64,000 nt of DNA from Candidatus Moraniibacteriota bacterium (GTDB taxonomy: Bacteria > Patescibacteriota > Minisyncoccia > Moranbacterales > UBA1568): contig CAVURJ010000001.1 of assembly GCA_963743885.1 (NCBI GenBank), positions 502,321-566,320 of the forward strand. The letters run 5' to 3'. The notes beneath the pieces are model-generated. The model worked only from the letters and a program-made list of their open reading frames with translations, did no database searches and was not told the origin of the DNA. Below, one piece after another: positions 1 through 56,779 of this stretch (its first letter is position 1; each line of letters begins with the position of its first letter). The position numbers and the translations under genes are program-made.

Positions 1-288
1 GATCCGAAACAGAAGATGGTCTTTTATCGTGGCAAGGGGTGCGAAGAATGCGGACAAGCGGGATATAAAGGGCGCATCGCCATCTATGAAGTCATAGGTA
101 TTGATGATGAGATGCGTGAAATCATATCGGATAAGCATGGAAATGATGCGGATGTACGTAGGGCGGCGGCCCATCAGGGCATGCTAACTCTCAAACAGGA
201 TGGAATCCTAAAGGCTCTTCAGGGTATCACGACGCTTTCTGAAGTGGAGCGTGTCACTGAGGGAAGGATCCTTGTGGATGAAGAGTGA
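1..288 (+). CDS. pilB: Type IV pilus assembly / type II secretion ATPase PilB/GspE, C-terminal fragment (5' end outside window)
   Basis: ORF runs from the window edge. It carries the C-terminal zinc-finger-like CEECGQAGYKGRIAIYEV and a GspE-type tail. It is followed by pilT and pilC. Confidence 0.7.
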   Translation, partial: DPKQKMVFYRGKGCEECGQAGYKGRIAIYEVIGIDDEMREIISDKHGNDADVRRAAAHQGMLTLKQDGILKALQGITTLSEVERVTEGRILVDEE

Positions 289-345
289 GGCATTTCTTTC
301 TGAAAGATGGTATAATCAGAGGGGTTCGGTTAAAGAAAGACAGAC

Positions 346-1425
346 ATGGAAACGTTGCATGCAGAACAGCGATTGAAGAATCTTCTTCTCCTCGTAGGAC
401 AGCAGAATGCTTCGGACCTGCACCTTGTTGTGGGGCGGTATCCGACGCTCCGTATTGATGGAAAATTGCATCCTGTTACGCAGGACAAGGTACTCACGCC
501 GGCTGATACCAAAGCCTTGTCGGATGCTATGCTGACTGATGATAAGAAGCAGGAGCTGCTTTCTGTTGGGCAGACAGATTTTTCATATAATTTTGAGGAT
601 CGTGTTCGGTTTCGTACGAATGTCTTCTTCCAGAAAGGGTATGTAAGCGTGACGATGCGCTTCGTAATGGATCGGTTGCGTAGTCTTGATGAGCTAGCAA
701 TACCGGCTTCACTTTATGGCTTCGCGGATTATTCGCAGGGGCTTGTGCTGATTACTGGGCCGGTCGGTCATGGCAAATCGACGACGCTTGCGGCTATCAT
801 CGACTATATCAACCATAACCAGGAGAAGCATATCATGACGATCGAAGACCCGATCGAATTTGTGTACAATCAGGATCGCTGTATCATCAATCAGCGCGAA
901 ATCGGCCGTGATGCCAAGAATTTTCCTGATGCGCTCCGGGCTGTCTTTCGCGAGGATGCGAATGTCGTGCTTCTCGGTGAGCTCCGCGATCTGGAGACGA
1001 TCAGTACGGCGATGACGGCAGCGGAAACCGGCCATCTTATCTTTGCGACGCTTCATACCAATGACAGCTCTCAAACTATCGATCGCATCATAGACGTCTT
1101 TCCGGCGCATCAGCAGAATCAGATTCGCGCGCAGCTTGCGAGCGTGCTGCTCGGAGTTATTTCGCAGCGCCTTCTGCCGCGGACGGGCGGAGGCCGCGTT
1201 CCGGCGGTTGAGATCATGTTCAAGAACCATGCTGTCGAGAACCTCATCCGCGAGAACAAGGTGCACCAGCTTGATTCCGTCATCGAGACGAGTCTCAAGG
1301 ATGGCATGATTTCTCTCGATAGGGCACTTGCCGATCTTGTCCGTCGCGGCGTAATCGCCGTGAACGATGCGCTGACCTATGCGAAAAACAGGGATTATCT
1401 CAGGATGCTTATCGAAAAGTCGTAA
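346..1425 (+). CDS. pilT: Twitching motility ATPase PilT (type IV pilus retraction)
   Basis: 359 aa. Walker A GPVGHGKSTTLAAIIDYIN, Asp box and His box typical of PilT/PilU. RBS-like sequence upstream. Confidence 0.85.
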   Translation: METLHAEQRLKNLLLLVGQQNASDLHLVVGRYPTLRIDGKLHPVTQDKVLTPADTKALSDAMLTDDKKQELLSVGQTDFSYNFEDRVRFRTNVFFQKGYVSVTMRFVMDRLRSLDELAIPASLYGFADYSQGLVLITGPVGHGKSTTLAAIIDYINHNQEKHIMTIEDPIEFVYNQDRCIINQREIGRDAKNFPDALRAVFREDANVVLLGELRDLETISTAMTAAETGHLIFATLHTNDSSQTIDRIIDVFPAHQQNQIRAQLASVLLGVISQRLLPRTGGGRVPAVEIMFKNHAVENLIRENKVHQLDSVIETSLKDGMISLDRALADLVRRGVIAVNDALTYAKNRDYLRMLIEKS

Positions 1426-2868: not shown

Positions 2869-3285
2869 ATGAATAAATCATTCAAGGGTTTCACCCTCAT
2901 CGAACTCCTGATCGTCATCGCGATCATCGGCATTCTCGCCTCTATCGTGCTTGTCTCTCTTTCGAGCGCGCGTGAGAAGGCGAAGATTGCTGCGTTCAAA
3001 GCGCAGGTGCATTCGATGCAGGCTGCAGCTGTGTTGGCGTGCGATAGTGCCGTCTTGACTGCTGCGATACCGGGTGTCCCGGCGGGCGGTTTTGTCAACG
3101 CATATGCTGCGGGCGATATCCTTACCGGAACAGCAGCAACGGATTGTGGAACGACCGGAACGGGCAACTTTGATATTCAGTTGGAATCTGTCGAGATCGG
3201 CTCTTCAGCAGCTGCGACAGCGTGTGAAACAGCGAACATGACGCATGTTACTCCGACAGGAGCTACGTTCCCTGCAGGTTGCTAG
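2869..3285 (+). CDS. Type IV major pilin (prepilin with class III signal), copy 1
   Basis: Leader MNKSFKG followed by FTLIELLIVIAIIGILASIVLVSLSS (Gly at -1, Phe at +1, Glu at +5). Strong RBS aaaggaggtgagaagtt. C-terminus ends TFPAGC. 138 aa. Confidence 0.85.
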   Translation: MNKSFKGFTLIELLIVIAIIGILASIVLVSLSSAREKAKIAAFKAQVHSMQAAAVLACDSAVLTAAIPGVPAGGFVNAYAAGDILTGTAATDCGTTGTGNFDIQLESVEIGSSAAATACETANMTHVTPTGATFPAGC

Positions 3286-3373
3286 TGAGAGATGATAATC
3301 TTTTTGCCTGCTAATCTCTCTGTTGGCAGGCAGAATGGGTTATCATCGAGGCTTGATTAAGTAAAGGACTATT

Positions 3374-3796
3374 ATGTTGTATAACAAGATACAAAGGGGT
3401 TTCACCCTCATCGAACTCCTGATCGTCATCGCGATCATCGGCATTCTCGCCTCTATCGTGCTTGTCTCTCTTTCGAGCGCGCGTGAGAAGGCGAAGATTG
3501 CTGCGTTCAAAGCGCAGGTGCATTCGATGCAGGCTGCAGCTGTGTTGGCGTGCGATAGTGCCGTCTTGACTGCTGCGATACCGGGTGTCCCGGCGGGCGG
3601 TTTTGTCAACGCATATGCTGCGGGCGATATCCTTACCGGAACAGCAGCAACGGATTGTGGGGTGGTCGGGACAGGTAATTTCAATATTCAGTTGGAATCT
3701 GTCGAGATCGGCTCTTCAGCAGCTGCGACAGCGTGTGAAACAGCGAACATGACGCATGTTACTCCGACAGGAGCTACGTTCCCTGCAGGTTGCTAG
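3374..3796 (+). CDS. Type IV major pilin, copy 2 (near-identical tandem duplicate of copy 1)
   Basis: Leader MLYNKIQRG | FTLIELL. The mature region differs from copy 1 at only a few residues (DCGVVGTGNFNIQ vs DCGTTGTGNFDIQ). The flanking non-coding sequence is also duplicated. Confidence 0.85.
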   Translation: MLYNKIQRGFTLIELLIVIAIIGILASIVLVSLSSAREKAKIAAFKAQVHSMQAAAVLACDSAVLTAAIPGVPAGGFVNAYAAGDILTGTAATDCGVVGTGNFNIQLESVEIGSSAAATACETANMTHVTPTGATFPAGC

Positions 3797-3884
3797 TGAG
3801 AGATGATAATCTTTTTGCCTGCTAATCTCTCTGTTGGCAGGCAGAATGGGTTATCATCGAGGCTTGATTAAGTAAAGGACTATT

Positions 3885-4304
3885 ATGTTGTATAACAAGA
3901 TACAAAGGGGTTTCACCCTCATCGAACTCCTGATCGTCATCGCGATCATCGGCATTCTCGCCTCTATCGTGCTTGTCTCTCTTTCGAGCGCGCGTGAGAA
4001 GGCGAAGATCGCGTCGTTCAAGGCACAGGTACATTCGATACAATCAAGTGCTATCATGTATTGTGACGATGCAGCGGTGGCGACGGCGTCCGATCTTATG
4101 ACAGCGATCGATACTGGGAACGGCGGGGCGTTGCCAACGGGGGTGGCATGGAATGTAGCTTCCGGTGAAGCAGCGGATTGCGGGTCGGCGGGTAGCGGGA
4201 CATTCGTTCTCTATCTTGATCCGACAATACTTGCACCAGGAGCATGCACTGTTTCAGCGACATCGATCGATCCGACAGGGGTGACATTTCCTGCTGGTTG
4301 CTAG
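3885..4304 (+). CDS. Type IV major pilin, copy 3 (divergent C-terminal domain)
   Basis: Leader and first ~45 mature residues identical to copy 2. The C-terminal half diverges but keeps the terminal TFPAGC and the internal Cys. Confidence 0.85.
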   Translation: MLYNKIQRGFTLIELLIVIAIIGILASIVLVSLSSAREKAKIASFKAQVHSIQSSAIMYCDDAAVATASDLMTAIDTGNGGALPTGVAWNVASGEAADCGSAGSGTFVLYLDPTILAPGACTVSATSIDPTGVTFPAGC

Positions 4305-4340
4305 ATGTTGATGGAAGAGGTTTTCTGACAAGTCATGATA

Positions 4341-4371
4341 ACGAGCGAGTCGTATCCTCGCTCGTTTTTTT
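4341..4371 (+). terminator. Intrinsic terminator after pilin copy 3
   Basis: acgagcgag-tcgtatc-ctcgctcgt hairpin followed by TTTTTTT. Confidence 0.6.
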
Positions 4372-4462
4372 GAATGTAAAGAATGGAAAGGAAAATTATG
4401 TCGTATCCTTACTTTGTGGTATACTTGCTGGGAAAGGAAAAAATCAAAGCATATACGAAGAT

Positions 4463-4861
4463 ATGGAAACGAGAGGATTGAAAAGATCAGCGCGAGGTTT
4501 CACTCTCATCGAACTCCTGATCGTCATCGCGATCATCGGCATTCTCGCCTCTATCGTGCTTGTCTCTCTTTCGAGCGCGCGTGAGAAGGCGAAGATCGCG
4601 TCGTTCAAGGCGGTGGTGCATTCGATGCAGACGAAAGCGATCGAAGCCTGTGATAGCGGTACGATCGACTATACCGATGTGACCGGGTCTTTTGGAACGT
4701 ATCCGGTTGACATAAATCCTGCCGGTATTACGGATGGCGGTCAGGATTGCGGACCTTTGGCGGGGAATACGTTTAGCGTCAATGTCCAATCAGCTAACCT
4801 CTCATTCATGTGCACCGCGACGCTTCAGGAGACCGGCATCACGAATTTTGCCGGGTGTTGA
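4463..4861 (+). CDS. Type IV major pilin, copy 4 (own promoter, most divergent)
   Basis: Leader METRGLKRSARG | FTLIELLIVIAIIGILASIVLVSLSSAREKAKIASFKA. Ends NFAGC. Preceded by a TTGTGGTATACT promoter-like motif. The listed ORF 4244 starts upstream of the terminator, so 4463 is the likely start. Confidence 0.8.
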   Translation: METRGLKRSARGFTLIELLIVIAIIGILASIVLVSLSSAREKAKIASFKAVVHSMQTKAIEACDSGTIDYTDVTGSFGTYPVDINPAGITDGGQDCGPLAGNTFSVNVQSANLSFMCTATLQETGITNFAGC

Positions 4862-4899: not shown

Positions 4900-5739
4900 T
4901 TGGTTCTGTCGTTTATGACCCTGACTTTTACAGTGATTTTTTTTGTTCTTGGACTCATCATCGGGAGTTTTCTCAATGTGGTGGTCTATCGGCTGAAGGA
5001 TGCGGAGACATTGCTTGGGCGCTCCGTTTGCCGTCATTGTCGCCATCAGATCCGTTGGTACGACAATATTCCAGTTTTTTCGTTTCTTTTGTTGCGAGGT
5101 CGTTGTCGTGATTGTAGAGCCGAGATTTCTTGGCAATATCCGGCTGTAGAACTGATGACGGGCATAAGCTTTGTCTTGATGGGGGTGTATTTCTTTTCGT
5201 TTGAGGATACCGCTTCTTGGGTCGAAACAGCATGGCTGCTTTCCGTCGTGAGTTGCTGTATCGTCGTTGCAGCATATGATATCCGGCACATGGAAATCCC
5301 ATTGATACCGCTCGCTATAATCGCTTTGTTGACGATTCTTTTTTTTGCTTACGAACTCCGTTTCGGTGGATCGTTTTTTTGGAGCCGTCTTTGGCTCGGA
5401 ATAGCTGGAGCTGCTGTTGTCGGAGGATTCTTCTTTGCTCTCGTTTATGCATCCCATGAAACGTGGATGGGATGGGGTGATGTCTGGTTGGGGTGTTTGG
5501 CAGGATTGGTTGTCGGACTTCCAGCCGTACTCTTTATGTTGACAGTCTCTTTCGCGTCTGGGAGCGCCGTCGGTATCGCTGGTATGTATGCGCAAGGAAA
5601 GGGATTGAAGAGCCAGATGCCATTCGGTCCGTTTCTTGTTATCGGGATGATTGTAACTATTCTTTTTCCGGAACTTTTCCCTGGGTACGCATCGCTTTTC
5701 ATGCTTTCGGCTTCTGGTTGGATGCCGCTGTTCGGATGA
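4900..5739 (+). CDS. pilD: Prepilin peptidase PilD (A24 family, N-methyltransferase)
   Basis: 279 aa polytopic membrane protein. N-terminal Zn-binding CRHCRH...CRDC tetracysteine. Conserved Asp-containing motifs typical of the GspO/PilD family. Confidence 0.85.
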   Translation: MVLSFMTLTFTVIFFVLGLIIGSFLNVVVYRLKDAETLLGRSVCRHCRHQIRWYDNIPVFSFLLLRGRCRDCRAEISWQYPAVELMTGISFVLMGVYFFSFEDTASWVETAWLLSVVSCCIVVAAYDIRHMEIPLIPLAIIALLTILFFAYELRFGGSFFWSRLWLGIAGAAVVGGFFFALVYASHETWMGWGDVWLGCLAGLVVGLPAVLFMLTVSFASGSAVGIAGMYAQGKGLKSQMPFGPFLVIGMIVTILFPELFPGYASLFMLSASGWMPLFG

Positions 5740-7645: not shown

Positions 7646-9808
<2,163 letters not shown>

Positions 9809-9933
9809 AATCCAAAATTCAAAATCTCAATTTCCAAATAAATCCCAATATCAAAACTCAAAACTTAGGATTTGGACATTTGAATTTTGAATTTATTTGG
9901 AGCTTGTAATTTTGGGTTTGAGATTTACAGAGT
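9809..9933. repeat. AT-rich imperfect-palindromic intergenic element, copy A
   Basis: aaatccaaaattcaaaatctcaatttccaaataaat...atttatttggagcttgtaatttt. The left and right halves are reverse complements (ccaaataaat/atttatttgg, aatctcaa/ttgagatt). About 95% identical to copy B. Confidence 0.6.
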
Positions 9934-10221: not shown

Positions 10222-10350
10222 GAAATCCAAAATTCAAAATCTCAATTTCCAAATAAATCCCAATATCAAAACTCAAAACTTAGGATTTGGACATTTGTAT
10301 TTTGAATTTATTTGGAGCTTGTAATTTTGGATTTTGAATTTAACGAAGAT
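10222..10350. repeat. AT-rich imperfect-palindromic intergenic element, copy B
   Basis: Near-identical to 9809-9933. It extends to the gatA start, and the listed ORF 10312 begins inside it. Confidence 0.6.
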
Positions 10351-13345: not shown

Positions 13346-13496
13346 TTTTAAGAAATCCCAAATCCCAAATACCAAATATCAAATAAATTCCAATTTTCAA
13401 AATTCCGACTCCGAAACCGTTTAGGATACTGGAATTTGTAATTTGGAGCTTATTTGGAAATTGGTGCTTGATGTTTGGAGTTTATAAAGTATTATT
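13346..13496. repeat. AT-rich palindromic intergenic element, copy C (divergent)
   Basis: aaatcccaaatcccaaataccaaatatcaaataaattcc...ttggagcttatttgg. Same word content as copies A and B. Confidence 0.45.
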
Positions 13497-14078: not shown

Positions 14079-14768
14079 ATGAAGCACGGAAAGAATTATC
14101 GCGGCGTGGCTCTGAAGCTCGATGCGAGCAAGGAGTATACCCCGGAAGAGGCAATCGCTTTCATCCAGGAGCACAAGATGGCAAAATTCGACGAGTCTGT
14201 CGAAGTGCATGTCCGTCTCGGTATCAACGCCAAGAAGACCGATGAGATGGTCCGCGCGACCGTCGTCCTGCCGCACGGCACGGGCCGTACGCAGAAAGTC
14301 GCTGTCGTGACGTCGACCAAGGAGAAGGAAGCGGAAGAGGCTGGTGCTGATGTCATCGGCGGCGAGGAGCTGATCGCTGATATCAAGGATGGCAAGGTGA
14401 TTGCCGGCCAGGCATTCAGCGTGCTTCTGGCGACGCCGGAGATGATGCCGAAGCTCGCGGTCATCGCGAAGATCCTCGGTCCGAAGGGCATGATGCCGTC
14501 GCCGAAGACTGAGACCGTGACGCCGAAGATCAAGGAAACCGTCGAAATGCTCAAGAAGGGCAAGCGCGTGAGCTTCAAGAATGATGATTCTGGAAATGTC
14601 CATCAGATCATCGGCAAAGTCTCCTTCAAGGCTGAGGAGCTCTTGGAGAACTATCAGATGTTCCGCGAGACCCTCAACAAGGCCAAGTCCGAGTCGACCA
14701 AGGGTAAGCTCGTGAAGTCGGTCACGCTGTGCTCGACGATGGGTCCGAGCCTGACCATCAAGATGTAG
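14079..14768 (+). CDS. rplA: 50S ribosomal protein L1
   Basis: 229 aa, KLDASKEYTPEEAIAFIQE...VEVHVRLGI...TGRTQKVAV. Confidence 0.9.
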   Translation: MKHGKNYRGVALKLDASKEYTPEEAIAFIQEHKMAKFDESVEVHVRLGINAKKTDEMVRATVVLPHGTGRTQKVAVVTSTKEKEAEEAGADVIGGEELIADIKDGKVIAGQAFSVLLATPEMMPKLAVIAKILGPKGMMPSPKTETVTPKIKETVEMLKKGKRVSFKNDDSGNVHQIIGKVSFKAEELLENYQMFRETLNKAKSESTKGKLVKSVTLCSTMGPSLTIKM

Positions 14769-15563: not shown

Positions 15564-16481
15564 ATGAAGCAATACCTCGATCTCCTGCGCCATATCATGG
15601 AGCACGGAGCGACGAAGACTGATCGCACCGGGACTGGTACGAAGAGCGTGTTCGGGTATCAGATGCGCTTCGATCTGTCGCAGGGCTTTCCGCTTATGAC
15701 GACGAAGAAGATGTTTACGCGCGGCATCACTGAAGAATTGCTGTGGTTCCTCCGCGGCGAATCGAACATCAAGTATCTCGTCGATCGCGACGTGCATATC
15801 TGGGATGAATGGCCGTTCAAGGCGTATCTCCAGAAGACTGGTCAGGCGGTGCCCGCGACCGGTTCTGATGAATGGAACGCGAAGATGGAGGAGTTTCTCG
15901 CGAAGGTGAAGTCTGATGAGGCATTCGCGAAGGAATACGGCGAGCTCGGCCCAGTGTACGGGTACCAGTGGCGTTCGTGGCCTGCTCCGGATGGCCGGCA
16001 TATCGATCAGATAGCGGAGGTCGTCGATCAGATCAAGAAGTCTCCCGATTCGCGACGCATGATCGTTTCAGCGTGGAATGTCGCTGATATCGGGGAAATG
16101 GCCAAGTCCGGGCTGCCGCCGTGTCATTGCCTCTTCCAGTTCTATGTCGCTGACGGCAAGCTGTCATGTCAATTGTACCAGCGGAGCTGCGATACGTTCC
16201 TTGGTGTACCATTCAATATCGCTTCGTATGCGCTCCTGACGATGATGGTGGCGCAGGTGTGCGATCTCGAGCCTGGCGAGTTCGTCTGGACGGGCGGAGA
16301 TACGCATATCTACAGCAACCATTTCGAGCAGGCGACGCTCCAGCTCTCGCGCGAGCCGCGTCCGCTCCCGAAGATGATCATCAATCCGGAAGTGAAGGAT
16401 ATTTTTGCCTTTACGATCGATGATTTCACGCTCGAAGGCTATGATCCGCACGATGCCATCAAGGCGCCGATCGCCGTGTAA
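15564..16481 (+). CDS. thyA: Thymidylate synthase ThyA
   Basis: Active-site [12 protein letters not shown] and [19 protein letters not shown]. Starts [15 protein letters not shown] after the RBS gaaggagaag; the listed ORF start 15513 is upstream. Confidence 0.9.
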
Positions 16482-16486
16482 GGTCA

Positions 16487-16524
16487 TCCCGCCGCTCCAG
16501 AATGGGGAGGCGGGTTTCTTTTTG
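16487..16524 (+). terminator. Intrinsic terminator after thyA
   Basis: cccgccgctcc-agaatgg-ggaggcggg followed by TTTCTTTTT. Confidence 0.55.
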
Positions 16525-16551
16525 GAAAAAAGGCTGGAAATAGGGTATTAT
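16522..16551 (+). promoter_or_regulatory. Putative sigma-70 promoter (TTGGAA, 18-nt spacer, TATTAT) driving the structured element
   Basis: The -35 and -10 hexamers are correctly spaced immediately upstream of the 16576-16723 element. Confidence 0.35.
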
Positions 16552-16575
16552 GGATGGGTAGTGTGGTGGATTTTT

Positions 16576-16723
16576 CCTCCGGAAGCTCCTTTCTCGAGCA
16601 AAAGAAAACTCGAAGCCTTTGTTTCTGACGGAGCTTTTTCCTCCCTCTCCACGACCCAAGGAAAACCTCCGGGAAACAAAGGCTTCTCAGACAGTTCTTT
16701 TGCCTCAAAAGGACATCCGGAAG
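16576..16723 (+). ncRNA. Candidate structured RNA element (unclassified), copy 1
   Basis: Rod-like three-stem hairpin: P1 ccgga/tccgg, P1b gagcaaaag/cttttgcctc, P2 gaagcctttgtttc/gaaacaaaggcttc, P3 cggag/ctccg. Terminal loop CCUCCCUCUCCACGACCCAAGGAAAAC. Homologous to 33262-33410 with compensatory substitutions. Confidence 0.4.
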
Positions 16724-16942
16724 AAAAATCCTGTTAAGATAAGTGAAGACTTTCGTGTTTTGTTTTTTCTTCCTCTGGCCAGCGGCGGTCACATATGCGA
16801 TGAGCGAACCGGTAACGGTCGAGCGTGACGCGTGGCCGAGTTAGCGGACAGCTCCCCGTTCGGTAGAGCGAGTCGGATATGTTCGCCGGCGGTCATGGAA
16901 TGAAAAAACAAAATACGAGAAGTCTTAACGAACCATCAGTAT

Positions 16943-17431
16943 ATGCCGCAACCTCGCATCAGTCTCATATCAGCCATCGCCCGGAAGGATCGCGCTATCG
17001 GAAAGGATAATGCACTCTTGTGGCATATCCCGGAGGATTTCAAGCACTTCAAGGAGCTAACGAGCGGGCACGCGATCGTCATGGGCGAGAATACGTACCG
17101 ATCGATCGGACGCCCTTTGCCGAACCGGACGAACATCGTGTTGTCGCAGACGCCGGATTTTGCTCCGGAGGGTATAGTGGTCGTGCGCTCGATTGAGGAA
17201 GCATTGGAAAAGGCGAAGGCTATGGAGCAGGAAGAGATATTCATCATCGGCGGTGCGAGCATCTATCGACAGTTCATTCCGCTCGCGGACAGGCTGTATC
17301 TGACGCTTGTCGAGGGTGAGTACGAGGCGGATACGTTTTTCCCAGAATACGATGAGTTTGTAAGAGTTCTGAGCGAGGAAAAGATGGATAATGGTGCGCA
17401 TCAATTTTCATTCGTAACATTAGAAAAATGA
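16943..17431 (+). CDS. folA: Dihydrofolate reductase
   Basis: ISLISAIARKDRAIGKDNALLWHIPEDFKHFKELTSGHAIVMGENTYRSIG, DHFR family, 162 aa. Confidence 0.85.
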   Translation: MPQPRISLISAIARKDRAIGKDNALLWHIPEDFKHFKELTSGHAIVMGENTYRSIGRPLPNRTNIVLSQTPDFAPEGIVVVRSIEEALEKAKAMEQEEIFIIGGASIYRQFIPLADRLYLTLVEGEYEADTFFPEYDEFVRVLSEEKMDNGAHQFSFVTLEK

Positions 17432-19576: not shown

Positions 19577-21052
19577 ATGGCAAAGTACAATGTCACGATA
19601 GGCATGGAGGTGCATGCGGAGCTCAAGACAGCTTCCAAGATGTTTTGTCGCTGCAAGAACGGCCTCGGCCTTGAGACCGAGCCGAATGTGAACATCTGCC
19701 CGGTCTGCACAGGTCAGCCAGGGACGCTGCCAGTGCCGAACCGTCAGGCGATTGAGTCCGTCCAGCGTGTCGGTTTGGCTCTTGGCTGTACACTTCGTCT
19801 CAAGTCGAAGTTTGACCGTAAGAACTATTTCTATCCAGACATCCCAAAGGGTTATCAGATTTCTCAGTATGACCAGCCGTTCTGCGAGCAGGGCACAATG
19901 AAGATCGATGGTGAGACATTCCGCATTACACGTATCCATCTTGAAGAAGATACGGGTAAGTCGATGCATCCAGCGGGAGCGGACCACACACTCGTCGATT
20001 TCAACCGGGCCGGCGTGTCGCTCATGGAGCTCGTGACGGAGCCTGATTTTTCGACCGGCAAGGATGCTCGTCTGTTCTGCCAGAAGCTCCGCCAGACACT
20101 CCGATATCTCGAGGTGTCCGATGCTGATATGGAGAAGGGGCAGATGCGCTGCGAAGTGAACATCTCACTGTATCCTGAGGGTGCTGACCGATTGTCCGGG
20201 ACCAAGGTGGAGGTGAAGAACCTCAACTCCTTCAAGACGGTCGAGCGCGCTATTGAGTACGAGATCAGGCGCCAGACAGAAGCGCTCGAAGCTGGCGAGA
20301 AGATCGTTCAGGAGACTCGCGGGTGGGATGAAGGCAAGCAGGCGACTGTTTCTCAGCGCAAGAAGGAATCCGCGCATGATTATCGATATTTCCCTGAGCC
20401 GGATATCCCGCCGTTCGAGTTTACTCCGGAGTACGTCGAGGGACTTCGGGCGACGCTGCCGGAGATGCCTGATACCAAGACTGCGCGTTTCATCTCGCAG
20501 TACGGGTTGCCGGAGGCGGACGCGGTCATCCTGACGGACGATCGTGGGTTTGCGGCGTACTATGAGGCGGCACTTTCCGAGATCGATGCGAAGATCCAGT
20601 CCAAGGAGATAGCAGCGCCGATTGAACGTGCTGCCAAGCTTGCTGCGAACTACATGCTGACGGAAGTGCGCAAGCATCTTTCTGAGAGCGGGCAGTCGGT
20701 CGCGGAGATGTCGATTACGGCGGAGAACTATGCCGAGTTCGTCGGTCTAGTCGCCGATAGTAAGATCAACTCGAGCGCAGCTCAGACAGTGCTCGCTGAG
20801 ATGTACAAAGGTGGCGACAATGACCCATCGCACATCGTGGAGAGGCTCAATCTCGGACAGGTCTCGGATACGGGCGAGCTCGAGAAGGTCGTGGATCAGG
20901 TACTTGAGCGGAACGAACAGTCCGTCGTGGATTTCAAAGCTGGCAAGCAGAACGCGCTTCAGTTCCTCATGGGTCAGGTCATGTCGGCTACAAAGGGAAA
21001 AGCCAACCCGCCTATGGTAATGGAATTATTGAGGAAAAAGCTGAATAGCTGA
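19577..21052 (+). CDS. gatB: Asp-tRNA(Asn)/Glu-tRNA(Gln) amidotransferase subunit B
   Basis: MAKYNVTIGMEVHAELKTASKMFCRCKNG...CPVCTGQPGTLP and a C-terminal YqeY-like tail. A divergent duplicate of the last ~20 codons lies just downstream in another frame. Confidence 0.9.
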   Translation: MAKYNVTIGMEVHAELKTASKMFCRCKNGLGLETEPNVNICPVCTGQPGTLPVPNRQAIESVQRVGLALGCTLRLKSKFDRKNYFYPDIPKGYQISQYDQPFCEQGTMKIDGETFRITRIHLEEDTGKSMHPAGADHTLVDFNRAGVSLMELVTEPDFSTGKDARLFCQKLRQTLRYLEVSDADMEKGQMRCEVNISLYPEGADRLSGTKVEVKNLNSFKTVERAIEYEIRRQTEALEAGEKIVQETRGWDEGKQATVSQRKKESAHDYRYFPEPDIPPFEFTPEYVEGLRATLPEMPDTKTARFISQYGLPEADAVILTDDRGFAAYYEAALSEIDAKIQSKEIAAPIERAAKLAANYMLTEVRKHLSESGQSVAEMSITAENYAEFVGLVADSKINSSAAQTVLAEMYKGGDNDPSHIVERLNLGQVSDTGELEKVVDQVLERNEQSVVDFKAGKQNALQFLMGQVMSATKGKANPPMVMELLRKKLNS

Positions 21053-21159
21053 TGACTCCAGATCCGCCTCGGGCGGAAAGGAAACGAAGGGCAAAGCGAA
21101 TCCGCCGATGGTAATGGAGTTGCTACGGAAGAAGCTTGGCGCATAATCTTCTACAAAAG

Positions 21160-21194
21160 AAAAATCCTGTCGGATTCGCCGACAGGATTTTTTG
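21160..21194. terminator. Bidirectional intrinsic terminator between gatB (+) and miaA (-)
   Basis: A-run, atcctgtcgg-attcg-ccgacaggat, then T-run. Confidence 0.65.
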
Positions 21195-21206
21195 TTACGT
21201 AACGAG

Positions 21207-27972: not shown

Positions 27973-28100
27973 AAGCACCAAATTCAAAATTATAAGCTCC
28001 AAATAAATACAAAATTACAATTTTTCAAATCGAGATATGTTTTTTAGTTTTGGATATTGAAATTTATTTGGGATTTGTAATTTTGAATTTGTGATTTAGG
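27973..28100. repeat. AT-rich palindromic intergenic element, copy D (divergent)
   Basis: aagctccaaataaatacaaaattacaattttt...aaatttatttgggatttgtaattttgaattt. It contains both orientations of the ccaaataaat word. Confidence 0.45.
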
Positions 28101-29017: not shown

Positions 29018-29713
29018 ATGGATAGCAAGGTAGACACCGCACAACTGAAGGAGAAGCTCGCCATCGGCATCACCAATGACGACCTGTTTCAGGAGGCGCT
29101 GACGCATCGGTCATTTCTGAATGAACACAAAGGATACGCGCATCCGCACAATGAGCGGCTGGAGTTTCTTGGTGATGCGGTGCTTGAGCTTGTCGTGACG
29201 CGCCATCTCTTTGATCATTTCGACAATCCGGAAGGCGAGCTGACCAGTTTTCGTGCGGCGCTCGTGAATGGGGATATGCTCGGCAAGATTGGGCACAGCC
29301 TGGGACTCCAGGATTTCCTTCTCATGAGTCGCGGCGAAGCCAAGGATACCGGCCGGGCGAGGAACTACCTTGTGGCCAATGCCATGGAGGCGGTCATCGG
29401 AGCGCTCTATCTTGATCAGGGGTATGATGCGGCCAAGGATTTCATCGAGCGTTATGTGCTCACACATCTGCCAGAAGTGCTCGAGCAAGGACTCTATACC
29501 GACGCGAAGAGTCGCTTCCAGGAAGTGGCACAGGAGAAGGTCGGCGTGACCCCGGGATACCGCGTGCTCCGCGAGTGGGGGCCGGATCATGATCGGCACT
29601 TCATTGCGGGCGTCTATCTGGGCGATGAGCTGGTCGCTGAGGGAGAGGGCGTGTCCAAGCAGGAAGCACAGCGCGCTGCCGCCAAGGCCGGACTGGAGAA
29701 GAAGGGGTGGTAA
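29018..29713 (+). CDS. rnc: Ribonuclease III
   Basis: RNase III signature ERLEFLGDAVLELVV and a C-terminal dsRBD. Confidence 0.85.
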   Translation: MDSKVDTAQLKEKLAIGITNDDLFQEALTHRSFLNEHKGYAHPHNERLEFLGDAVLELVVTRHLFDHFDNPEGELTSFRAALVNGDMLGKIGHSLGLQDFLLMSRGEAKDTGRARNYLVANAMEAVIGALYLDQGYDAAKDFIERYVLTHLPEVLEQGLYTDAKSRFQEVAQEKVGVTPGYRVLREWGPDHDRHFIAGVYLGDELVAEGEGVSKQEAQRAAAKAGLEKKGW

Positions 29714-29848: not shown

Positions 29849-29983
29849 ATGGGTAAGGAGTTCGTTTTGTTATTGGATCCTGTCGGAGTGGTTATCGGCG
29901 GCGCATTTCTCCTGGTAATTTTCTTTTTCCTGTTCCAGGAGGCGCGGAGCGGTAACCACGAGGATGATGATTCTGGTCTTTGA
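29849..29983 (+). CDS. Possible small hydrophobic protein (44 aa)
   Basis: MGKEFVLLLDPVGVVIGGAFLLVIFFFLFQEARSGNHEDDDSGL. RBS ggaggg 7 nt upstream. Its stop overlaps the start of the next gene. Confidence 0.3.
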   Translation: MGKEFVLLLDPVGVVIGGAFLLVIFFFLFQEARSGNHEDDDSGL

Positions 29984-30717
29984 CAACTAGGGAGGATGAG
30001 AAAGTGAAAAAGTCGACAAAACAGACGGCATGGGCCATCGTCTGGCTCTTTGTTCTCAGTACGGGGTTGCTTGTTCTGAGTCATGGCGCGTTCGTGCAGA
30101 TGTTCGGCGAGTATGCGCATGTTCCGGAAATCCTGATTGTCATTGCTGTTTTTGCCCTGGCCTACTGGTTGTGTAAGAACCGTGAGACTCTCGGAGGAAA
30201 GCATCACCCTCGTTGGGGCGGAGACATGCGTACTTTGATGACGTTGGTGGTCGGCATGCAGGGGGATATACGGACAGCTGTTCTCAACCATGTCCGGACG
30301 AAACTCGGGATAGGATTTGATGGCCAGGCCATGATTGGACCGAAAGAAGATGCGCTGCTCATGAAATGGTTTCTCGACTACGGGTATATTTCAAAGGCAG
30401 CCGTCGGAAAAGCGGTGCACGAGAGGCTGTGCGAGATTGGTCGGATCGTGTATGAACGAGACATCCTTTCTTGGCATCAATTTCCCGATGGCGCGCTCGT
30501 TTTGTCGAATGCACTTGGGTATGCAATCTTGCATGGTGCTGTTTCTGCTGAAGAAGTGAAGAATATCCGCTTCGACCATAACGAGGCTGCCAAGGAATAC
30601 GCTAGGGCGGCGGAAGGATTGCACGAGAACGTCATGCGGCAGCTTGCCTCTGGCGATGCGTATTTTCGTTCTGAGTTTTCGGGCGGCGATGATTGCTGCT
30701 GCTGTGATTACTGCTGA
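29980..30717 (+). CDS. Hypothetical membrane protein with Cys-rich C-terminal tail
   Basis: 245 aa. Two N-terminal TM helices and a soluble domain. Ends GGDDCCCCDYC. No recognisable family. Confidence 0.45.
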   Translation: MTTREDEKVKKSTKQTAWAIVWLFVLSTGLLVLSHGAFVQMFGEYAHVPEILIVIAVFALAYWLCKNRETLGGKHHPRWGGDMRTLMTLVVGMQGDIRTAVLNHVRTKLGIGFDGQAMIGPKEDALLMKWFLDYGYISKAAVGKAVHERLCEIGRIVYERDILSWHQFPDGALVLSNALGYAILHGAVSAEEVKNIRFDHNEAAKEYARAAEGLHENVMRQLASGDAYFRSEFSGGDDCCCCDYC

Positions 30718-30910: not shown

Positions 30911-33211
30911 ATGTATCTAAAGAAACTCGAAATCAGTGGTTTCAAATCCTTCGCCAACAAGATGGCGTTGGATTTTTTGCCTGAGTGCGACATCGTTTCC
31001 GGCGGCAAGTGCGGCATCACGGCGATCGTGGGACCGAACGGCAGCGGCAAGTCCAATGTAGCTGATGCGATCCGCTGGGCGATCGGCGAGCAGTCGCTCA
31101 AGAATTTGCGCGGCAAGAAGTCCGAGGACGTCATCTTCGCTGGTACGGACAAGAAGGCCCGGCTCGGCACAGCATCGGTGACGATGTATTTCGATAACTC
31201 CGACAAGCGTATCCCGATCGAGTTCGCCGAGGTTTCCATCACACGCAAGATCTACCGGAGCGGCGAGAGTGAGTACCTGATCAATGGGTCGCACGTGCGG
31301 CTCATGGATATCGTCGATCTCCTGGCGAAGGCTGGCATCGGCAAGGACAGCTATTGTGTCATCACGCAGGGCATGAGCGATGCTGTGCTCAATGCATCTT
31401 CTTCCGAGCGGCGATCCATCTTTGAGGACGCGGCCGGCGTGAAGCAGTATCAGATCGAGAAGGAACGTTCGCTTCGGAAGCTTGAGAGCACTCGGGAAAA
31501 TCTCGTTCGCGTCGACGCGCTGACAGTCGAGATCGAGCCTCATCTCAAGAACTTGCGCCGCCAGGCCGAGAAGGCTTCACAGGGCAAGGATATTGCGCAA
31601 AGGCTTCGCGACAAGCAGGTGCTGCTCTATAGCTATCTCTGGGATAGCTTCCAGGGTGAGCGGGGGGCGCTTATGAAGGAGCGCGATGCGGCGCAGAAAC
31701 AAGTTTTTGATCTTGAAGTCGAGACCAATACGCTCGCGACCGAAGTCGCCGAGGCGTCCAAATCCATGGATGATCAGAGCGGAGAGGATGGTCTCTCGAA
31801 TGAGCTCCTGCGGCTGCGCGATGAAGCCAATACACTGCTTCGTGATCGGAGCATCGTGGACGGCAAGATCGAGATAGAGAAAGAGAAGCAGAAGGAGCAA
31901 GAGGTGATCCGCACCATACCGGTCGACCTGAACTATGTCCGTACGGCGCTTGAGGAGATCCGTGGCAATCAGCAGGAGCTGATCGATCGTATCTCGCATG
32001 CCGAGAAGCTCGAAGACCTGCAGGATATCCGCGAGTTCGCCCAGGTGATCAAGCAGAAGCTTCATGACCTTGATGAGAAGGCTGGGAAGGGGAGCGTCGA
32101 GGAGAAGAAGGTCATCGCGTTGCCGCCCGATGAGAAGAAGGCGAGCGATGAGCGCCTGGCTGTCTTTGCGAAGGAAAAAGCGGATTGTAATGCGAAGCTC
32201 GAAAAGCTCCAGAAGGCGCTTACGGAGAAGGAGCAATCACTCATCGCGCTCCGTGAAGCGAGTCGTACGGCTCGTGAGACGTTTTTTGCCAAGGAGAAGG
32301 AATGGCGTGAGAAGGAGTACCGACTGACGAAGCTCAAGGACAGCCTGAACGAGGTGAAGGTGCGTCTGGCGCGTGTCGAGGTGCGCGAGGAGGATCTCGT
32401 GGCGCTCACGCGTGAAGAGCTCTCGATGGATGTGGCTGACCTGAAATATGACGGCACGGCCGTGGAACGGGAGCGTCTTGAGCATGAGATCGCCCGGCTC
32501 AAGGTGGAAGTCGAACATATCGGCACGATTGACCCGCTCGTCGTCGAGGAATATCAGGAGACAGAGAAGCGCTTCACGTTCTTGACGCACGAATCAGCCG
32601 ACCTCAAGGCAGCGATCGAATCACTCCAGACTGTGATCAAAGAGATGGATCAAAAGATCGACCATGCATTCCAGGATGCCTTCAAGGAGATCAAGAAAAA
32701 GTTTGAGGATTATTTCAAGATCATCTTCGGCGGCGGCAAGGCGGAGCTCCAGATCGTGAAGATCAAGAAGCGCAAAGCCGCTGCAGAGGAAGGGGAGGCA
32801 GAAGAGGGTGATGTCGACGAGGAAACCGAGGATGAGCCGGATGAGATCGGTATCGAGATCTTCGCGTGCCCTCCAGGGAAGAAGATTACGAACCTTTCCA
32901 TGCTTTCTGGCGGTGAGCGTTCGCTCACATCGCTCGCGCTTCTCTTCGCTATCATCTCGCACAATCCGCCGCCCTTTGCGGTGCTCGATGAAGTGGAGGC
33001 CGCGCTCGACGAGGCCAACTCGCGCCGCTTCTCGATGATGCTTCGTGAATTGTCCGATCATACGCAGTTCGTCGCTATCACGCACAACCGCGAGACGATG
33101 TCCCAGGCTGGGCTCCTCTACGGAGTCACGATGGGGGACGATGGCGTCTCGCAGCTCCTCTCCATCCGATTGGATCAAGTGGGCGAGGGTGGAAAAGTAG
33201 TGGTGAAATAG
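30911..33211 (+). CDS. smc: SMC-family chromosome segregation ATPase (short, 766 aa)
   Basis: N-terminal Walker A GPNGSGKSNVADAIRWAIG. Long coiled-coil. C-terminal signature LSGGERSLTSLALLFAI and Walker B AVLDEVEAALD. Shorter than canonical SMC, so the hinge is reduced. Confidence 0.75.
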   Translation: MYLKKLEISGFKSFANKMALDFLPECDIVSGGKCGITAIVGPNGSGKSNVADAIRWAIGEQSLKNLRGKKSEDVIFAGTDKKARLGTASVTMYFDNSDKRIPIEFAEVSITRKIYRSGESEYLINGSHVRLMDIVDLLAKAGIGKDSYCVITQGMSDAVLNASSSERRSIFEDAAGVKQYQIEKERSLRKLESTRENLVRVDALTVEIEPHLKNLRRQAEKASQGKDIAQRLRDKQVLLYSYLWDSFQGERGALMKERDAAQKQVFDLEVETNTLATEVAEASKSMDDQSGEDGLSNELLRLRDEANTLLRDRSIVDGKIEIEKEKQKEQEVIRTIPVDLNYVRTALEEIRGNQQELIDRISHAEKLEDLQDIREFAQVIKQKLHDLDEKAGKGSVEEKKVIALPPDEKKASDERLAVFAKEKADCNAKLEKLQKALTEKEQSLIALREASRTARETFFAKEKEWREKEYRLTKLKDSLNEVKVRLARVEVREEDLVALTREELSMDVADLKYDGTAVERERLEHEIARLKVEVEHIGTIDPLVVEEYQETEKRFTFLTHESADLKAAIESLQTVIKEMDQKIDHAFQDAFKEIKKKFEDYFKIIFGGGKAELQIVKIKKRKAAAEEGEAEEGDVDEETEDEPDEIGIEIFACPPGKKITNLSMLSGGERSLTSLALLFAIISHNPPPFAVLDEVEAALDEANSRRFSMMLRELSDHTQFVAITHNRETMSQAGLLYGVTMGDDGVSQLLSIRLDQVGEGGKVVVK

Positions 33212-33261
33212 ATACGAAAAGAGTTTCCTATGGGGAGCTCTTTTTTTGAATGATATATCTC

Positions 33262-33410
33262 CCACCCGGAAACTCTTTTCTCGAGCAAAAGGAAACTCGA
33301 AGGGCTTGTTTCTAACGAAGCTCTTCCCTCCCTCTTCACGACCCAAGAAATAGCTTCGAGAAACAAGCCCTTCTCAGACAGTCCTTTTGCCTCAAAAAGA
33401 CATCCGGGCG
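33262..33410 (+). ncRNA. Candidate structured RNA element (unclassified), copy 2
   Basis: Homologous to 16576-16723. Stem P2 is gaagggcttgtttc/gaaacaagcccttc and P3 is cgaagct/agcttcg, both with compensatory changes relative to copy 1. The loop CCUCCCUCUUCACGACCCAAGAAA is conserved. Confidence 0.4.
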
Positions 33411-33437
33411 GGAGATGACTGAAGGTAGTTGATCTGT

Positions 33438-33465
33438 TTGACAGAGGGGTGTGTTTTGATATACT
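33438..33465 (+). promoter_or_regulatory. Sigma-70 promoter (TTGACA, 16-nt spacer, TATACT)
   Basis: Consensus hexamers about 40 nt upstream of the ATG at 33506. Confidence 0.5.
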
Positions 33466-47901: not shown

Positions 47902-48477
47902 ATGGAACAGCCAGCATCACAACCGCAGACAGAAGAGAAGAAGATGTCCCGTCTGGAGCATCTCGCGTTTGAGGCGCCTCGCCATATCGGCTCGGTGCCG
48001 TCGCTCATCATCCACACGGTCTTTTTCGTGGGCATCTTCGCGCTGCAGATATGGGGTTTTTCCTTCGATCAGATCATGCTCATCCTGACGACTGCTGTGT
48101 CGCTTGAGGCTATCTATCTTGCTATCTTCATCCAGATGACGGTCAACCGCCATGCCGAGCAGATCGAGGAAGTGAGCGAGGACGTCGTGGAGCTGTCTGA
48201 GGACGTGGAAGAGCTCGGCGAGGACATCGAGGACATTTCCGAGGATGTGGACGAGATCGTGAAGGATATCGATACCATCCAGGAGGACGTGAAGGAGATC
48301 AGTGAGGACGTGGAGGAGATTTCCGAGGATGTGGAAGAGCTTGGCGAGGAGATCGAGAAGGACGACCAGGAAGACGCCGTCGAGCGCACTGAGGACCAGC
48401 GCAAGCTCGAGCATATGGAAAAGATTATCGCAGAATTGCTTTCTGAAATCCGTGATCTGAAGCATGAGAAGAAATAG
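47902..48477 (+). CDS. DUF1003-like membrane protein with acidic tandem-repeat coiled coil
   Basis: Two TM helices then repeated SEDVEELGEDIEDISEDVDEI... heptad-like units. Underlying DNA direct repeats. Confidence 0.5.
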   Translation: MEQPASQPQTEEKKMSRLEHLAFEAPRHIGSVPSLIIHTVFFVGIFALQIWGFSFDQIMLILTTAVSLEAIYLAIFIQMTVNRHAEQIEEVSEDVVELSEDVEELGEDIEDISEDVDEIVKDIDTIQEDVKEISEDVEEISEDVEELGEEIEKDDQEDAVERTEDQRKLEHMEKIIAELLSEIRDLKHEKK

Positions 48478-51217: not shown

Positions 51218-51799
51218 CTATATTATTTTTTGAATAATATTTAGGTCTAACCAGCGAATTAGCATTGTGTATTTTTGAACATAATCAATAAACTGAAGAA
51301 ATAGTATTTGTTCAAATGGTGGAATTTTAGCTAATTCTAGTTTTTTATATTTTTGCCCTTTGTTGTCTGTTGGATGAAAGAATTCGCCATTTAGCCAAAG
51401 ATCAAAAATCTCTTCTGCCTCAATCGTTTCTTCACCCAGATTGAATCGCATACTTGCTCCTGGGGCTAACACTTTTTGCCATGCCATTTTTGCATCCTGT
51501 ACTTTCTTAAATAGTTCAGAGTCTTGGTCTTTTAAAAGAAGGCTGAGCTTATTACATATTGAAAGGAAATGTACCGCCTCTCCTTGCAAGACAAAAGGAC
51601 GAAATCTTAGTAAGAATGACTCAGTTGTTTTTCTATCTGGTCCATCAAAAGCAGTAGAAACATGAGTTCCGTACCTCTCCTCTTTTGCTTTAATGTTTAA
51701 GCTAAGGTTTTTTAAAAATTCTTGATCACCTAAAGCTTCCGATTTTCTATGGAATAATACTAATGTTTCAATTATTTCTTTTCGATTAGGAGTAGGCAT
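51218..51799 (-). CDS. Hypothetical protein, AT-rich
   Basis: 193 aa. No recognisable motifs. Immediately downstream of promoter repeat R1. Confidence 0.4.
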   Translation of the reverse strand: MPTPNRKEIIETLVLFHRKSEALGDQEFLKNLSLNIKAKEERYGTHVSTAFDGPDRKTTESFLLRFRPFVLQGEAVHFLSICNKLSLLLKDQDSELFKKVQDAKMAWQKVLAPGASMRFNLGEETIEAEEIFDLWLNGEFFHPTDNKGQKYKKLELAKIPPFEQILFLQFIDYVQKYTMLIRWLDLNIIQKII

Positions 51800-51854
51800 A
51801 GACGGGGTATTTGTTTTTAAACTAAAACACCCTCTATAATTAAGGCTAACAATT

Positions 51855-51945
51855 GAAATATAGCCCTAAACCAGGCTTCTTACAAGCTTGGTATGGCCTG
51901 AAATCCTAAGCAACAGAAACGGTCTCGCGGCTGGTTTTTTGTAAG
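51855..51945 (-). promoter_or_regulatory. Repeat R1: terminator plus sigma-70 promoter cassette (minus strand)
   Basis: About 90 nt, nearly identical to 55797-55890. On the minus strand reads TTGTAA, 17-nt spacer gaagcctggtttagggc, TATATT. Upstream is the hairpin ccgccatgtcccctggacctctggcgg followed by a T-run. Confidence 0.5.
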
Positions 51946-55224: not shown

Positions 55225-55794
55225 CTAGATTTGAGTCAAAATTTTCTTAACTACCATCTTGGAAATTTCCAAGAACGGCCTTAGGTTCAGACAATAATAC
55301 TCATCTCTCTTTACTAAAACTGAATCCTGGTTATTTCCTGGATACAGCATCATACCAGGAGGCATGTGGCTATTATGAGTAAGCCTGTTTCTGTATTCTT
55401 TTTCTATTAGCCTGAGTTCAACTTCTGACAACTTTAAGTTATAGTACTCCGGATTATTTAATATTTGGAAGTGTTTTCCAATATCGTCTCCCCCTTTTTC
55501 GATTAGTGTTCCGACACTATCTACTATACATAGAAGTAATATTGCGGAGGGGTATCCATAACATCCTGCTTGATTAGGCCATCTGAAGTCTTTGCTTTTA
55601 TCAAAGTTGATACAATACTCTGAAACCTCAATCATCTCTTTTAAGGCTTCTTTAATCATCGAGTTGGTATTTCTGTGGATGGCCATAATATGTGTAGTGA
55701 TTTTCCTGCGGCCGGCCGCGGATGGGTGAGCCCAAAACCCATTCCAGAGTTTGGTATCTGTTACTAGAAAGTAAAACAAAAATATAGGTAACAT
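55225..55794 (-). CDS. Hypothetical protein, AT-rich
   Basis: 189 aa. Contains the GC-rich palindrome gcggccggccgcgg. The start may be the internal MAIHRNT. Downstream of promoter repeat R2. Confidence 0.35.
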   Translation of the reverse strand: MLPIFLFYFLVTDTKLWNGFWAHPSAAGRRKITTHIMAIHRNTNSMIKEALKEMIEVSEYCINFDKSKDFRWPNQAGCYGYPSAILLLCIVDSVGTLIEKGGDDIGKHFQILNNPEYYNLKLSEVELRLIEKEYRNRLTHNSHMPPGMMLYPGNNQDSVLVKRDEYYCLNLRPFLEISKMVVKKILTQI

Positions 55795-55796
55795 CT

Positions 55797-55890
55797 GAAA
55801 TATAGCCCTAAACCAGGCTTCTTACAAGCTTGGTATGGCCTGAAATCCTAAGCAACAAAAACGGTCTCGCGGCTGGTTTTTTTGTAATGG
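55797..55890 (-). promoter_or_regulatory. Repeat R2: second copy of the promoter/terminator cassette
   Basis: Nearly identical to 51855-51945. Confidence 0.5.
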
Positions 55891-56598: not shown

Positions 56599-56696
56599 TT
56601 GCCCGGGCAGGGTTCGAACCTGCGCATAGCGGAGTCAAAGTCCGCTGCCTTACCCGCCTCGACTCGCGTCGACGCGAGGCGGGCCACTTGGCTATC
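56599..56696 (-). pseudogene. tRNA-Gln(UUG)-like fragment X with a 31-nt hairpin in the D-loop and no 5' acceptor strand
   Basis: Minus-strand agcc-aagtgg-[cccgcctcgcgtcgacgcgagtcgaggcggg]-taaggc-a-gcgga-ctttgac-tccgc-tatgc-gcagg-ttcgaac-cctgc-ccgggca-a. It has D, anticodon (UUG) and T arms plus the 3' acceptor strand, but no complementary 5' strand. Confidence 0.4.
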
Positions 56697-56706
56697 ATTA
56701 TTGATG

Positions 56707-56779
56707 TTGGGGAGGTAGGGATCGAACCTACGAAATGGAGCCTTCAAAGGGCCCTGCCTTACCACTTGGCTACTCCCCA
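56707..56779 (-). tRNA. tRNA-Gln (anticodon UUG)
   Basis: Minus strand tggggag-ta-gcca-agtggta-aggc-a-gggcc-cuuugaa-ggcuc-(c)atttc-gtagg-ttcgatc-cctac-ctcccca-a. Acceptor, T-arm and anticodon stem all pair. CCA is not encoded. Confidence 0.75.

Follow-up and report, generated by a model that had tools for sequence, protein, structure and literature searches.

What kind of element is Repeat A, which occurs twice in the stretch of DNA analysed here (the window; 64 kb, 52% G+C), once behind thyA and once behind a gene for an SMC-like ATPase? The initial annotation had described it as a ~150-nt element present in two aligning copies and had regarded copy 1, with a plausible promoter, as consistent with a small-RNA gene. 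The two copies are real: they lie in direct orientation on the plus strand (16579-16720 and 33266-33407) and share 85% identity over 142 nt without gaps (BLAST E=1.7e-28), and searches of the 64 kb with nhmmer and with a covariance model (filters off) revealed no third one. The hairpin, however, is longer than the repeat unit and spans 165 nt in both copy 1 (c1) and copy 2 (c2; Table 1), with an outer 14-16 bp that differ wholly between the copies yet are complementary inside each (ATTTTTCCTCCGG/CCGGAAGAAAAAT in c1 and ATCTCCCACCCGG/CCGGGCGGGAGAT in c2). Each copy is predicted to fold into one hairpin of ~61 bp, with a minimum free energy for the plus-strand RNA of -69 kcal/mol in c1 (z -7.7) and -76 kcal/mol in c2 (z -9.9), and no shuffled sequence folded as well as either.

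Table 1. Positions of Repeat A, of the palindrome families B and C, and of neighbouring genes and signals in the window and in the contigs of relatives (L numbers)
Feature	Sequence	Position	Strand	Remark
thyA	window	15564..16481	+	upstream of c1
thyA intrinsic-terminator-like hairpin and T-run	window	16488..16523	+	seen by inspection; not listed in the consensus scan
Sigma-70-like promoter, TTGGAA-18-TATTAT	window	16522..16551	+	ancestral folA promoter
Repeat A, c1	window	16568..16732	+	imperfect palindrome, 61 predicted pairs; between folA promoter and folA start codon (context 1: folA 5' region, forward)
CCTCCCTCT motif	window	16640..16648	+	5' side of apical loop (16641-16659); c2 equivalent 33327-33335
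CTCAGACAG	window	16686..16694	+	3' side, conserved asymmetric internal loop; c2 equivalent 33373-33381
Repeat B	window	16743..16929	+	unrelated long palindrome directly after c1; -95 kcal/mol
folA (DHFR)	window	16943..17431	+	downstream of c1
rnc (RNase III)	window	29018..29713	+	
SMC-like ATPase gene (766 aa, SMC_N)	window	30911..33211	+	upstream of c2
Repeat A, c2	window	33255..33419	+	same architecture; between terminator of the SMC-like gene and promoter of the next gene (context 3)
Promoter-like site, TTGACA-16-TATACT	window	33438..33465	+	11/12, strong; next gene's, downstream of c2
Family C, four copies	window	9808-9927; 10223-10342; ~13353-13481; ~27977-28097		AT-rich ~120-nt palindromes
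Repeat A, ortholog	L001	9612-9776		identical in L002; same thyA-folA site as c1 (context 1)
Repeat A, L014a	L014	8870-9034		begins 19 nt after stop codon of rmlD-like gene, no terminator between (context 4); 93.8% identity to c2 (8871-9031)
Repeat A, L014b	L014	~5222-5364		antisense, between two plus-strand genes (context 5)
Repeat A, L015	L015	~166-353		opposite strand, just upstream of folA (context 2: folA 5' region, inverted)
Repeat B	L001	9810-9977		
Repeat B	L001	14220-14375	-	
Repeat B	L014	9086-9273		
Repeat B	L015	1-111; 4528-4678	-	
Repeat B	L020	1-65		
Family C, weak copy	L003/L004	6457-6564		upstream of rplK
Empty-site folA promoter	L006	2700-2737		
Empty-site folA promoter	L009	620-659		
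Empty-site folA promoter	L003	9960-10003		

The structure of A is actively maintained. The compensatory changes reported earlier for stems P2 and P3 are present as described: between c1 and c2, 10 pairs are replaced by a different Watson-Crick pair through changes on both sides and one becomes a wobble pair, while five involve a mismatch in one or both copies, so that the claim of pairing preserved at every changed position is nearly, but not strictly, true. When four gap-free copies were tested for covariation against shuffles over the 61-pair structure, 95.9% of the cells were paired and 15 pairs changed on both sides; neither value was reached in any of 500 shuffles, and structures whose 3' partners were slid by 1-3 columns gave only 2-4 double-sided changes. 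Similarly, c1 and its ortholog in L001 differ by five fully compensated pairs, two wobble changes, and three pairs that are broken or repaired. Differences between c1 and c2 affect 25% of the paired columns (31 of 122) and 12% of the unpaired ones (5 of 43), and unpaired columns thus change less than paired ones, which suggests that the stems are free to vary as long as they pair and that the loop and bulges are held in sequence. The CCUCC-containing loop motif had been called conserved, and CCTCCCTCT is indeed invariant in all six copies known from the window and its relatives, the divergent L014b included; CTCAGACAG is identical in five of six, again with L014b among them (CTCAAACAG in L014a). 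Conservation of the apical loop is limited to this 5' part, as its 3' half varies (CACAGCCCCAG in the L001 ortholog versus CACGACCCAAG in c1). Across the element, conservation is highest in the centre (loop and bulges) and lowest at the termini.

As the initial annotation had stated, A belongs to no identifiable RNA family: it had no match in Rfam 15 at the gathering score or at E<0.2 (best scores of 12.9-19 bits against thresholds of 40-50), and an Rfam 15 scan of the whole window returned tRNA matches only. Several known systems were considered and rejected. 6S RNA and SRP RNA resemble A in that each forms one long, irregular helix of 110-190 nt in which internal loops are conserved; A, unlike them, has neither a central bubble nor a GNAR loop, is multi-copy, and shows presence/absence polymorphism, and no covariance-model match was found even at E<10, noise aside. 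These two, retron ncRNA, and integron attC sites were all set aside on Rfam results, architecture, and context. The hallmarks of attC are R''/R' core sites (RYYYAAC ... GTTRRRY), cassette arrays, and a nearby intI; the ends of A (ATTTTTCC...GGAAGAAAAAT and ATCTCCC...GGGAGAT) lack such core sites, its copies lie 16.7 kb apart behind housekeeping genes, and no integrase was found among the window ORFs. The template and variable repeats of a diversity-generating retroelement (DGR) were rejected as well, given that the differences are not adenine-specific, neither copy is in a coding region, and no reverse transcriptase was found among the window ORFs.

Both signals that had been noted ahead of copy 1 exist, and both belong to its neighbours. 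The terminator that c1 follows (16488-16523) is that of thyA and is also present in relatives without A. In three A-less relatives (L006, L009, and L003), this terminator and the -35/-10 boxes are kept, and the folA ATG follows the -10 box at a distance of 7 nt. Since the promoter is kept in relatives that lack A, the site at 16522-16551 is the ancestral folA promoter, downstream of which A was inserted, and not the element's own; judged from the sequence, folA is apparently leaderless in these A-less relatives. In the window, 391 nt separate the folA promoter from the ATG, and folA lacks a preceding Shine-Dalgarno sequence. At the second site, a crude consensus scan listed no promoter-like site upstream of copy 2 on either strand, and the same kind of scan listed no terminator-like site after any copy of A. 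The SMC-like gene that precedes copy 2 is, with SMC_N over its full length of 766 aa, much shorter than a canonical SMC, and a 245-aa ORF without a Pfam match (29980-30717) lies between it and rnc.

The DHFR encoded by folA places the window in Candidatus Moranbacteria, and a 652-kb contig encodes an identical protein. Related loci were collected from the contigs of DHFR homologues with 81-91% identity to the folA product, and a single-frame profile of the A translation led, through the spurious ORF P0121, to a further locus (L014). Together with the window, these contigs hold six distinct copies of A (c1, c2, L001, which equals L002, L014a, L014b, and L015), ranging from ~145 to 188 nt and found in five contexts (Table 1). 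Three of the five independent placements run along the neighbouring genes and two are opposed to them; A shows no orientation preference. The thyA-folA gap measures 461-480 nt where it is filled and 6-99 nt in L003-5, L006-8, L009, L010, and L016, from which A is absent, and the DHFR of filled-site genomes is 88-91% identical to that of the window compared with 81-90% for empty-site genomes. Among the related lineages sampled, five lack A at this site, and one (L015) carries it inverted. The copies also differ in their make-up. The outer stem of c2 recurs in L014a at a different locus, and it therefore belongs to the element rather than to a palindrome at the target; the L015 copy is a mosaic of a c2-type outer stem and a c1-type inner stem with a 20-nt insertion; and L014b, which is ~19 nt shorter and has a G+C-rich lower stem (GC[AAAA]G/C[TTTT]GC changed to GC[CGCC]G/C[GGCG]GC), keeps the A architecture, loop, and bulge. 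Pattern scans that required an exact 20-base match, and would miss divergent copies, found no A in 185,579 species-representative genomes, in the scannable metagenome collection, or in viral, plasmid, and phage collections. The loop pattern CCTCCCTCTNCACGACCCAAG had no match in the species-representative genomes, BLAST of copy 1 gave no match in the plasmid and phage collections, and the matches to the 3'-arm pattern CAGACAGTNCTTTTGCCTCAA (a Vibrio genome, an unrelated Patescibacteria MAG, and a marine metagenome contig) and those to the A-loop and B-core patterns in the viral collection were regarded as chance only.

These distributions bear on the idea that the copies are paralogous small-RNA genes, each giving rise to a hairpin RNA of ~165 nt, with an invariant CCUCCCUCU loop that would base-pair with ribosome-binding sites of the GGAGG type or act as a mimic of the anti-Shine-Dalgarno sequence. 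Strong double-sided covariation, loops and bulges more conserved than the stems, a CCTCCCTCT motif that survives even in the divergent L014b, and the lack of a match among known RNA families would all suit such a gene, and copy 1, being downstream of a promoter, is probably transcribed. That promoter, however, is folA's own and older than the insertion, no promoter-like site precedes copy 2, terminator-like sites are missing behind all copies, and two of five independent placements run opposite to the surrounding genes. The orthologous site is empty in most close relatives (L003-10 and L016) and holds an inverted copy in L015, so neither synteny nor orientation is conserved, and the stems are nearly free of G-U pairs and show no strand asymmetry. 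We therefore consider a small-RNA gene unlikely, and the original proposal of one with its own promoter gives way to a patchy, non-syntenic, sometimes inverted element that stands behind the promoter of folA. For annotation, the lesson is that two genomic copies with perfect compensatory covariation do not suffice to identify a small-RNA gene, because palindromic repeats give an equal signal.

A protein product was evaluated in the same copies. Two ORFs overlap copy 1 (16405-16737 on the plus strand and 16484-16792 on the minus strand), and frame +1 is open in c1, L001, and L014a and has been called as a gene twice (a 147-aa ORF in L001 and the 63-aa P0121), which is what a small protein would predict. 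Every reading frame, however, is stopped in at least one of the six copies, the 20-nt insertion in L015 shifts the frame, L014b is ~19 nt shorter, and the substitutions are base-paired doubles rather than changes at synonymous sites. A translation profile recovered one relative among 1.84 billion representative proteins, and the same one in a set of 5.8 billion proteins. With no frame open in all six copies, these ORFs are not conserved as proteins, and a coding origin is extremely improbable.

Whether A acts as RNA or as DNA was approached through its pairs and folds. The stems are almost purely Watson-Crick (three G-T cells against five A-C cells across four sequences), a ratio without strand bias and uninformative as to the transcribed strand. 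Minus-strand RNAs fold 9-16 kcal/mol better in every copy because C/A-rich unpaired segments turn G/U-rich on that strand, and we accordingly rejected this advantage, which comes from the composition of unpaired segments, as a sign of the functional strand. As single-stranded DNA, A folds at -46 kcal/mol (z -8.5), which is as convincing as the RNA fold. The near-exclusive Watson-Crick pairing without wobble bias, this single-strand fold, and the inversion of the A-B module in L015 relative to the window would be compatible with a DNA-level cruciform or hairpin site for a nucleoid, recombination, or replication protein, whose palindromy was kept through template-switch correction only. On the other hand, asymmetric bulges and a ~19-nt loop persist in all copies, while pure arm-to-arm correction would erase asymmetry; no recombinase was found nearby, and no known site consensus was recognised by inspection, so that such a site is very unlikely. 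The lasting bulges and large loop argue against a palindrome kept solely by arm-to-arm copying and point to recognition of the folded form, be it RNA or single-stranded DNA.

Taken together, the dispersed sites, both orientations, the filled, empty, or inverted state of a single site in relatives, the non-coding sequence, and the lack of an own promoter or terminator suggest, with a probability of about 0.7, that A is a non-autonomous palindromic intergenic repeat family of the MITE/REPIN/ERIC/bcr1 type in a narrow lineage of Candidatus Moranbacteria (CPR/Patescibacteria). So read, A is a new, lineage-restricted family within a known type of bacterial repeat. It would spread as DNA, probably through a folded single-strand hairpin, with a trans-acting enzyme encoded elsewhere recognising the conserved loop and bulges, and its complementarity would be kept either since the hairpin is the substrate or through arm-to-arm template-switch correction. 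Some observations count against this repeat reading: the least conserved termini are the opposite of terminal inverted repeats recognised by a transposase, only two copies lie within 64 kb, and the invariant loop and bulges would also suit an RNA selected for function. By eye, no target-site duplication was seen at the flanks of c1, c2, L014a, L014b, or L015, and the AT at both ends of A is itself palindromic and hence uninformative on this point. No transposase, reverse transcriptase, or integrase was found among the ~56 window ORFs (Pfam) or in the gene tables of the related loci.

Comparison with described repeats places A close to several of them and identical to none. As in MITEs, A is short (145-188 nt, below the limit of ~500 bp), non-coding, and dispersed, with insertion polymorphism over five contexts in genomes whose DHFRs are 81-91% identical; terminal inverted repeats are present in that the whole length is palindromic (61 pairs), with termini that differ between sub-families, and neither the ~56 window ORFs nor the gene tables of the related loci revealed a cognate autonomous element or transposase. 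REPINs are doublets of REP sequences that form hairpins and are mobilised by RAYT tyrosine transposases, and compensatory changes across the hairpin are common in them (Bertels & Rainey 2011, PMC3116915). They share with A the non-coding, extragenic, long hairpins predicted in single-stranded DNA or RNA, the lineage-specific sequence families, and the clustering of adjacent repeats, but at ~70-110 nt they carry two short conserved REP palindromes at their ends and a variable spacer, whereas the profile of A is reversed, with the most variable ends and the most conserved centre; no RAYT (Y1 HUH transposase) was found in the window or the related loci that were fetched. In the Bacillus cereus group, the bcr1 element (~155 bp) is transcribed and shows no conserved distribution among genomes, and compensatory changes preserve its structure; the enterobacterial ERIC (~127 bp) is co-transcribed and affects mRNA decay (PMC3184786). 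Both resemble A in size (~127-155 bp), in being imperfect intergenic palindromes over their whole length, in their patchy occurrence between close relatives, in stems kept through compensatory changes, and in co-transcription with neighbours, which for A is presumed. They differ from A in their ends: bcr1 is bounded by 5-bp direct repeats and ERIC-type elements end in TA on both sides, while no such duplication was seen for A; sequence similarity is absent, and the host of A is a CPR bacterium with a small genome. In Neisseria, Correia hairpins undergo processing by RNase III and alter how neighbouring genes are expressed. Like A, these Correia/NEMIS elements are inverted-repeat elements of 100-160 nt beside genes and are co-transcribed (again presumed for A), but they possess conserved 26-bp terminal inverted repeats, a TA duplication, and an IHF site, and only their ends pair.

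Once landed in a transcribed region, A would be co-transcribed with its neighbours. In the window, A, with B, would turn a leaderless folA mRNA into one with a ~390-nt leader carrying two long hairpins (predicted fold -177 kcal/mol, z -10), and the ~60-bp RNA duplex would be a likely RNase III substrate, altering the stability or translation of the neighbouring mRNA; the product of rnc in the window would be the host enzyme expected to cut it. A related possibility is that the host itself selected A as a cis-acting RNA, a long hairpin in 5' or 3' UTRs that would control mRNA half-life or processing by serving as an RNase III site or by blocking exonucleases, and that its spread is secondary. 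The location of copy 1 and of the L001 ortholog within the folA leader, the start of L014a 19 nt behind a stop codon with no terminator between, the very stable predicted leader, the RNase III gene in the window, and the precedents of ERIC, Correia, and REP elements (PMC3184786) would fit such a role. Copy 2, however, lies after a terminator and before the next promoter and may be poorly transcribed, A stands in both orientations at folA (window and L015), and most relatives have folA without A. Moreover, the proposal is compatible with a mobile palindromic repeat and concerns what follows from the element, not how it arose; as an explanation in its own right it is improbable.

A further, similarly doubtful alternative is that A, and perhaps B, is an undescribed structured module of CPR bacteria, in which the invariant C-rich CCUCCCUCU loop and the fixed bulges form a functional RNA or single-stranded DNA surface and spread depends on the hairpin. 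The loop, an anti-Shine-Dalgarno look-alike, might then capture ribosome-binding sites or a specific protein, and such spread would need neither conserved termini nor target duplications. The module would also rewire the expression of essential genes, as in the change of folA from a leaderless mRNA to one with a long structured leader. The unusual profile of a fixed centre and free ends offers a testable handle on how A is recognised.

The palindromic repeat reading gains context from two other families, and the lineage carries several palindromic intergenic repeat families, of which A is one. Repeat B measures ~160-200 nt and folds at -89 to -104 kcal/mol. Its core (CGGTAACGGTCGAGCGTG ... ACAGCTCCCCGTTCG) is conserved, its outer stems vary between loci yet remain complementary, and no Rfam match was found for it. 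At three placements it adjoins A: it follows A in the window, L001, and L014, and the pair is inverted in L015. Contig L020 begins with a copy that lies upstream of folA. Further copies, without A, stand downstream of gatB in L001 and L015, where neither the window (21147-21200) nor L006 has an insert. Both L015 and L020 break off within B, as assemblies usually do at repeats. The palindromes of family C (about -32 kcal/mol) stand directly before gatC, gatA, and rplK. The one before rplK is apparently retained in a relative with a DHFR of just 81% identity, and family C may be part of leaders or promoter regions instead of being mobile.

CPR/Patescibacteria genomes are small, and mobile DNA is usually said to be scarce in them; one 64-kb stretch of such a genome here carries three families of long palindromic intergenic repeats. 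What is noteworthy about A is this host group, its insertion between the promoter and the start of an essential gene, folA, that appears to be leaderless in relatives, and its inverted conservation profile. Palindromic repeats also break metagenome assemblies and attract spurious ORF calls. In the literature library searched, no paper was found on miniature inverted-repeat elements in the candidate phyla radiation, nor on non-coding RNA in Moranbacteria.

Several further features of the window and of its relatives were recorded. The last ~53 nt of gatB (20990-21042) are duplicated 94 nt downstream (21084-21136, 79% identity) as a 3'-end remnant past the stop codon, and L001 has a similar gatB remnant that is interrupted by a small G+C-rich hairpin. 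In L001, a gene for an 84-aa GIY-YIG nuclease (14448-14702, minus strand) adjoins the B copy downstream of gatB; it is missing at the corresponding site in the window, L006, and L015. A 103-nt direct repeat of 93% identity (51838-51940 and 55780-55882) stands just upstream of two minus-strand ORFs without a Pfam match (51218-51799 and 55225-55794) and probably reflects the duplication of a gene together with its 5' region. A partial tRNA-like Rfam match on the minus strand (56607-56664; 33.5 bits, model positions 9-63) lies 40 nt from tRNA-Gln (56706-56779); ARAGORN called no tRNA at this position, and the sequence may be a truncated tRNA or a tRNA remnant. Positions 1-14 of the JGI contig L021 are Illumina adapter-like (TGCTCTTCCGATCT), an assembly artefact. 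Finally, tandem paralogous pilin-like genes with the N_methyl motif occupy 2886-4794 with a 511-nt period, and acidic repeats with a 21-nt period are found at 48157-48398, inside ORF 47902-48477.
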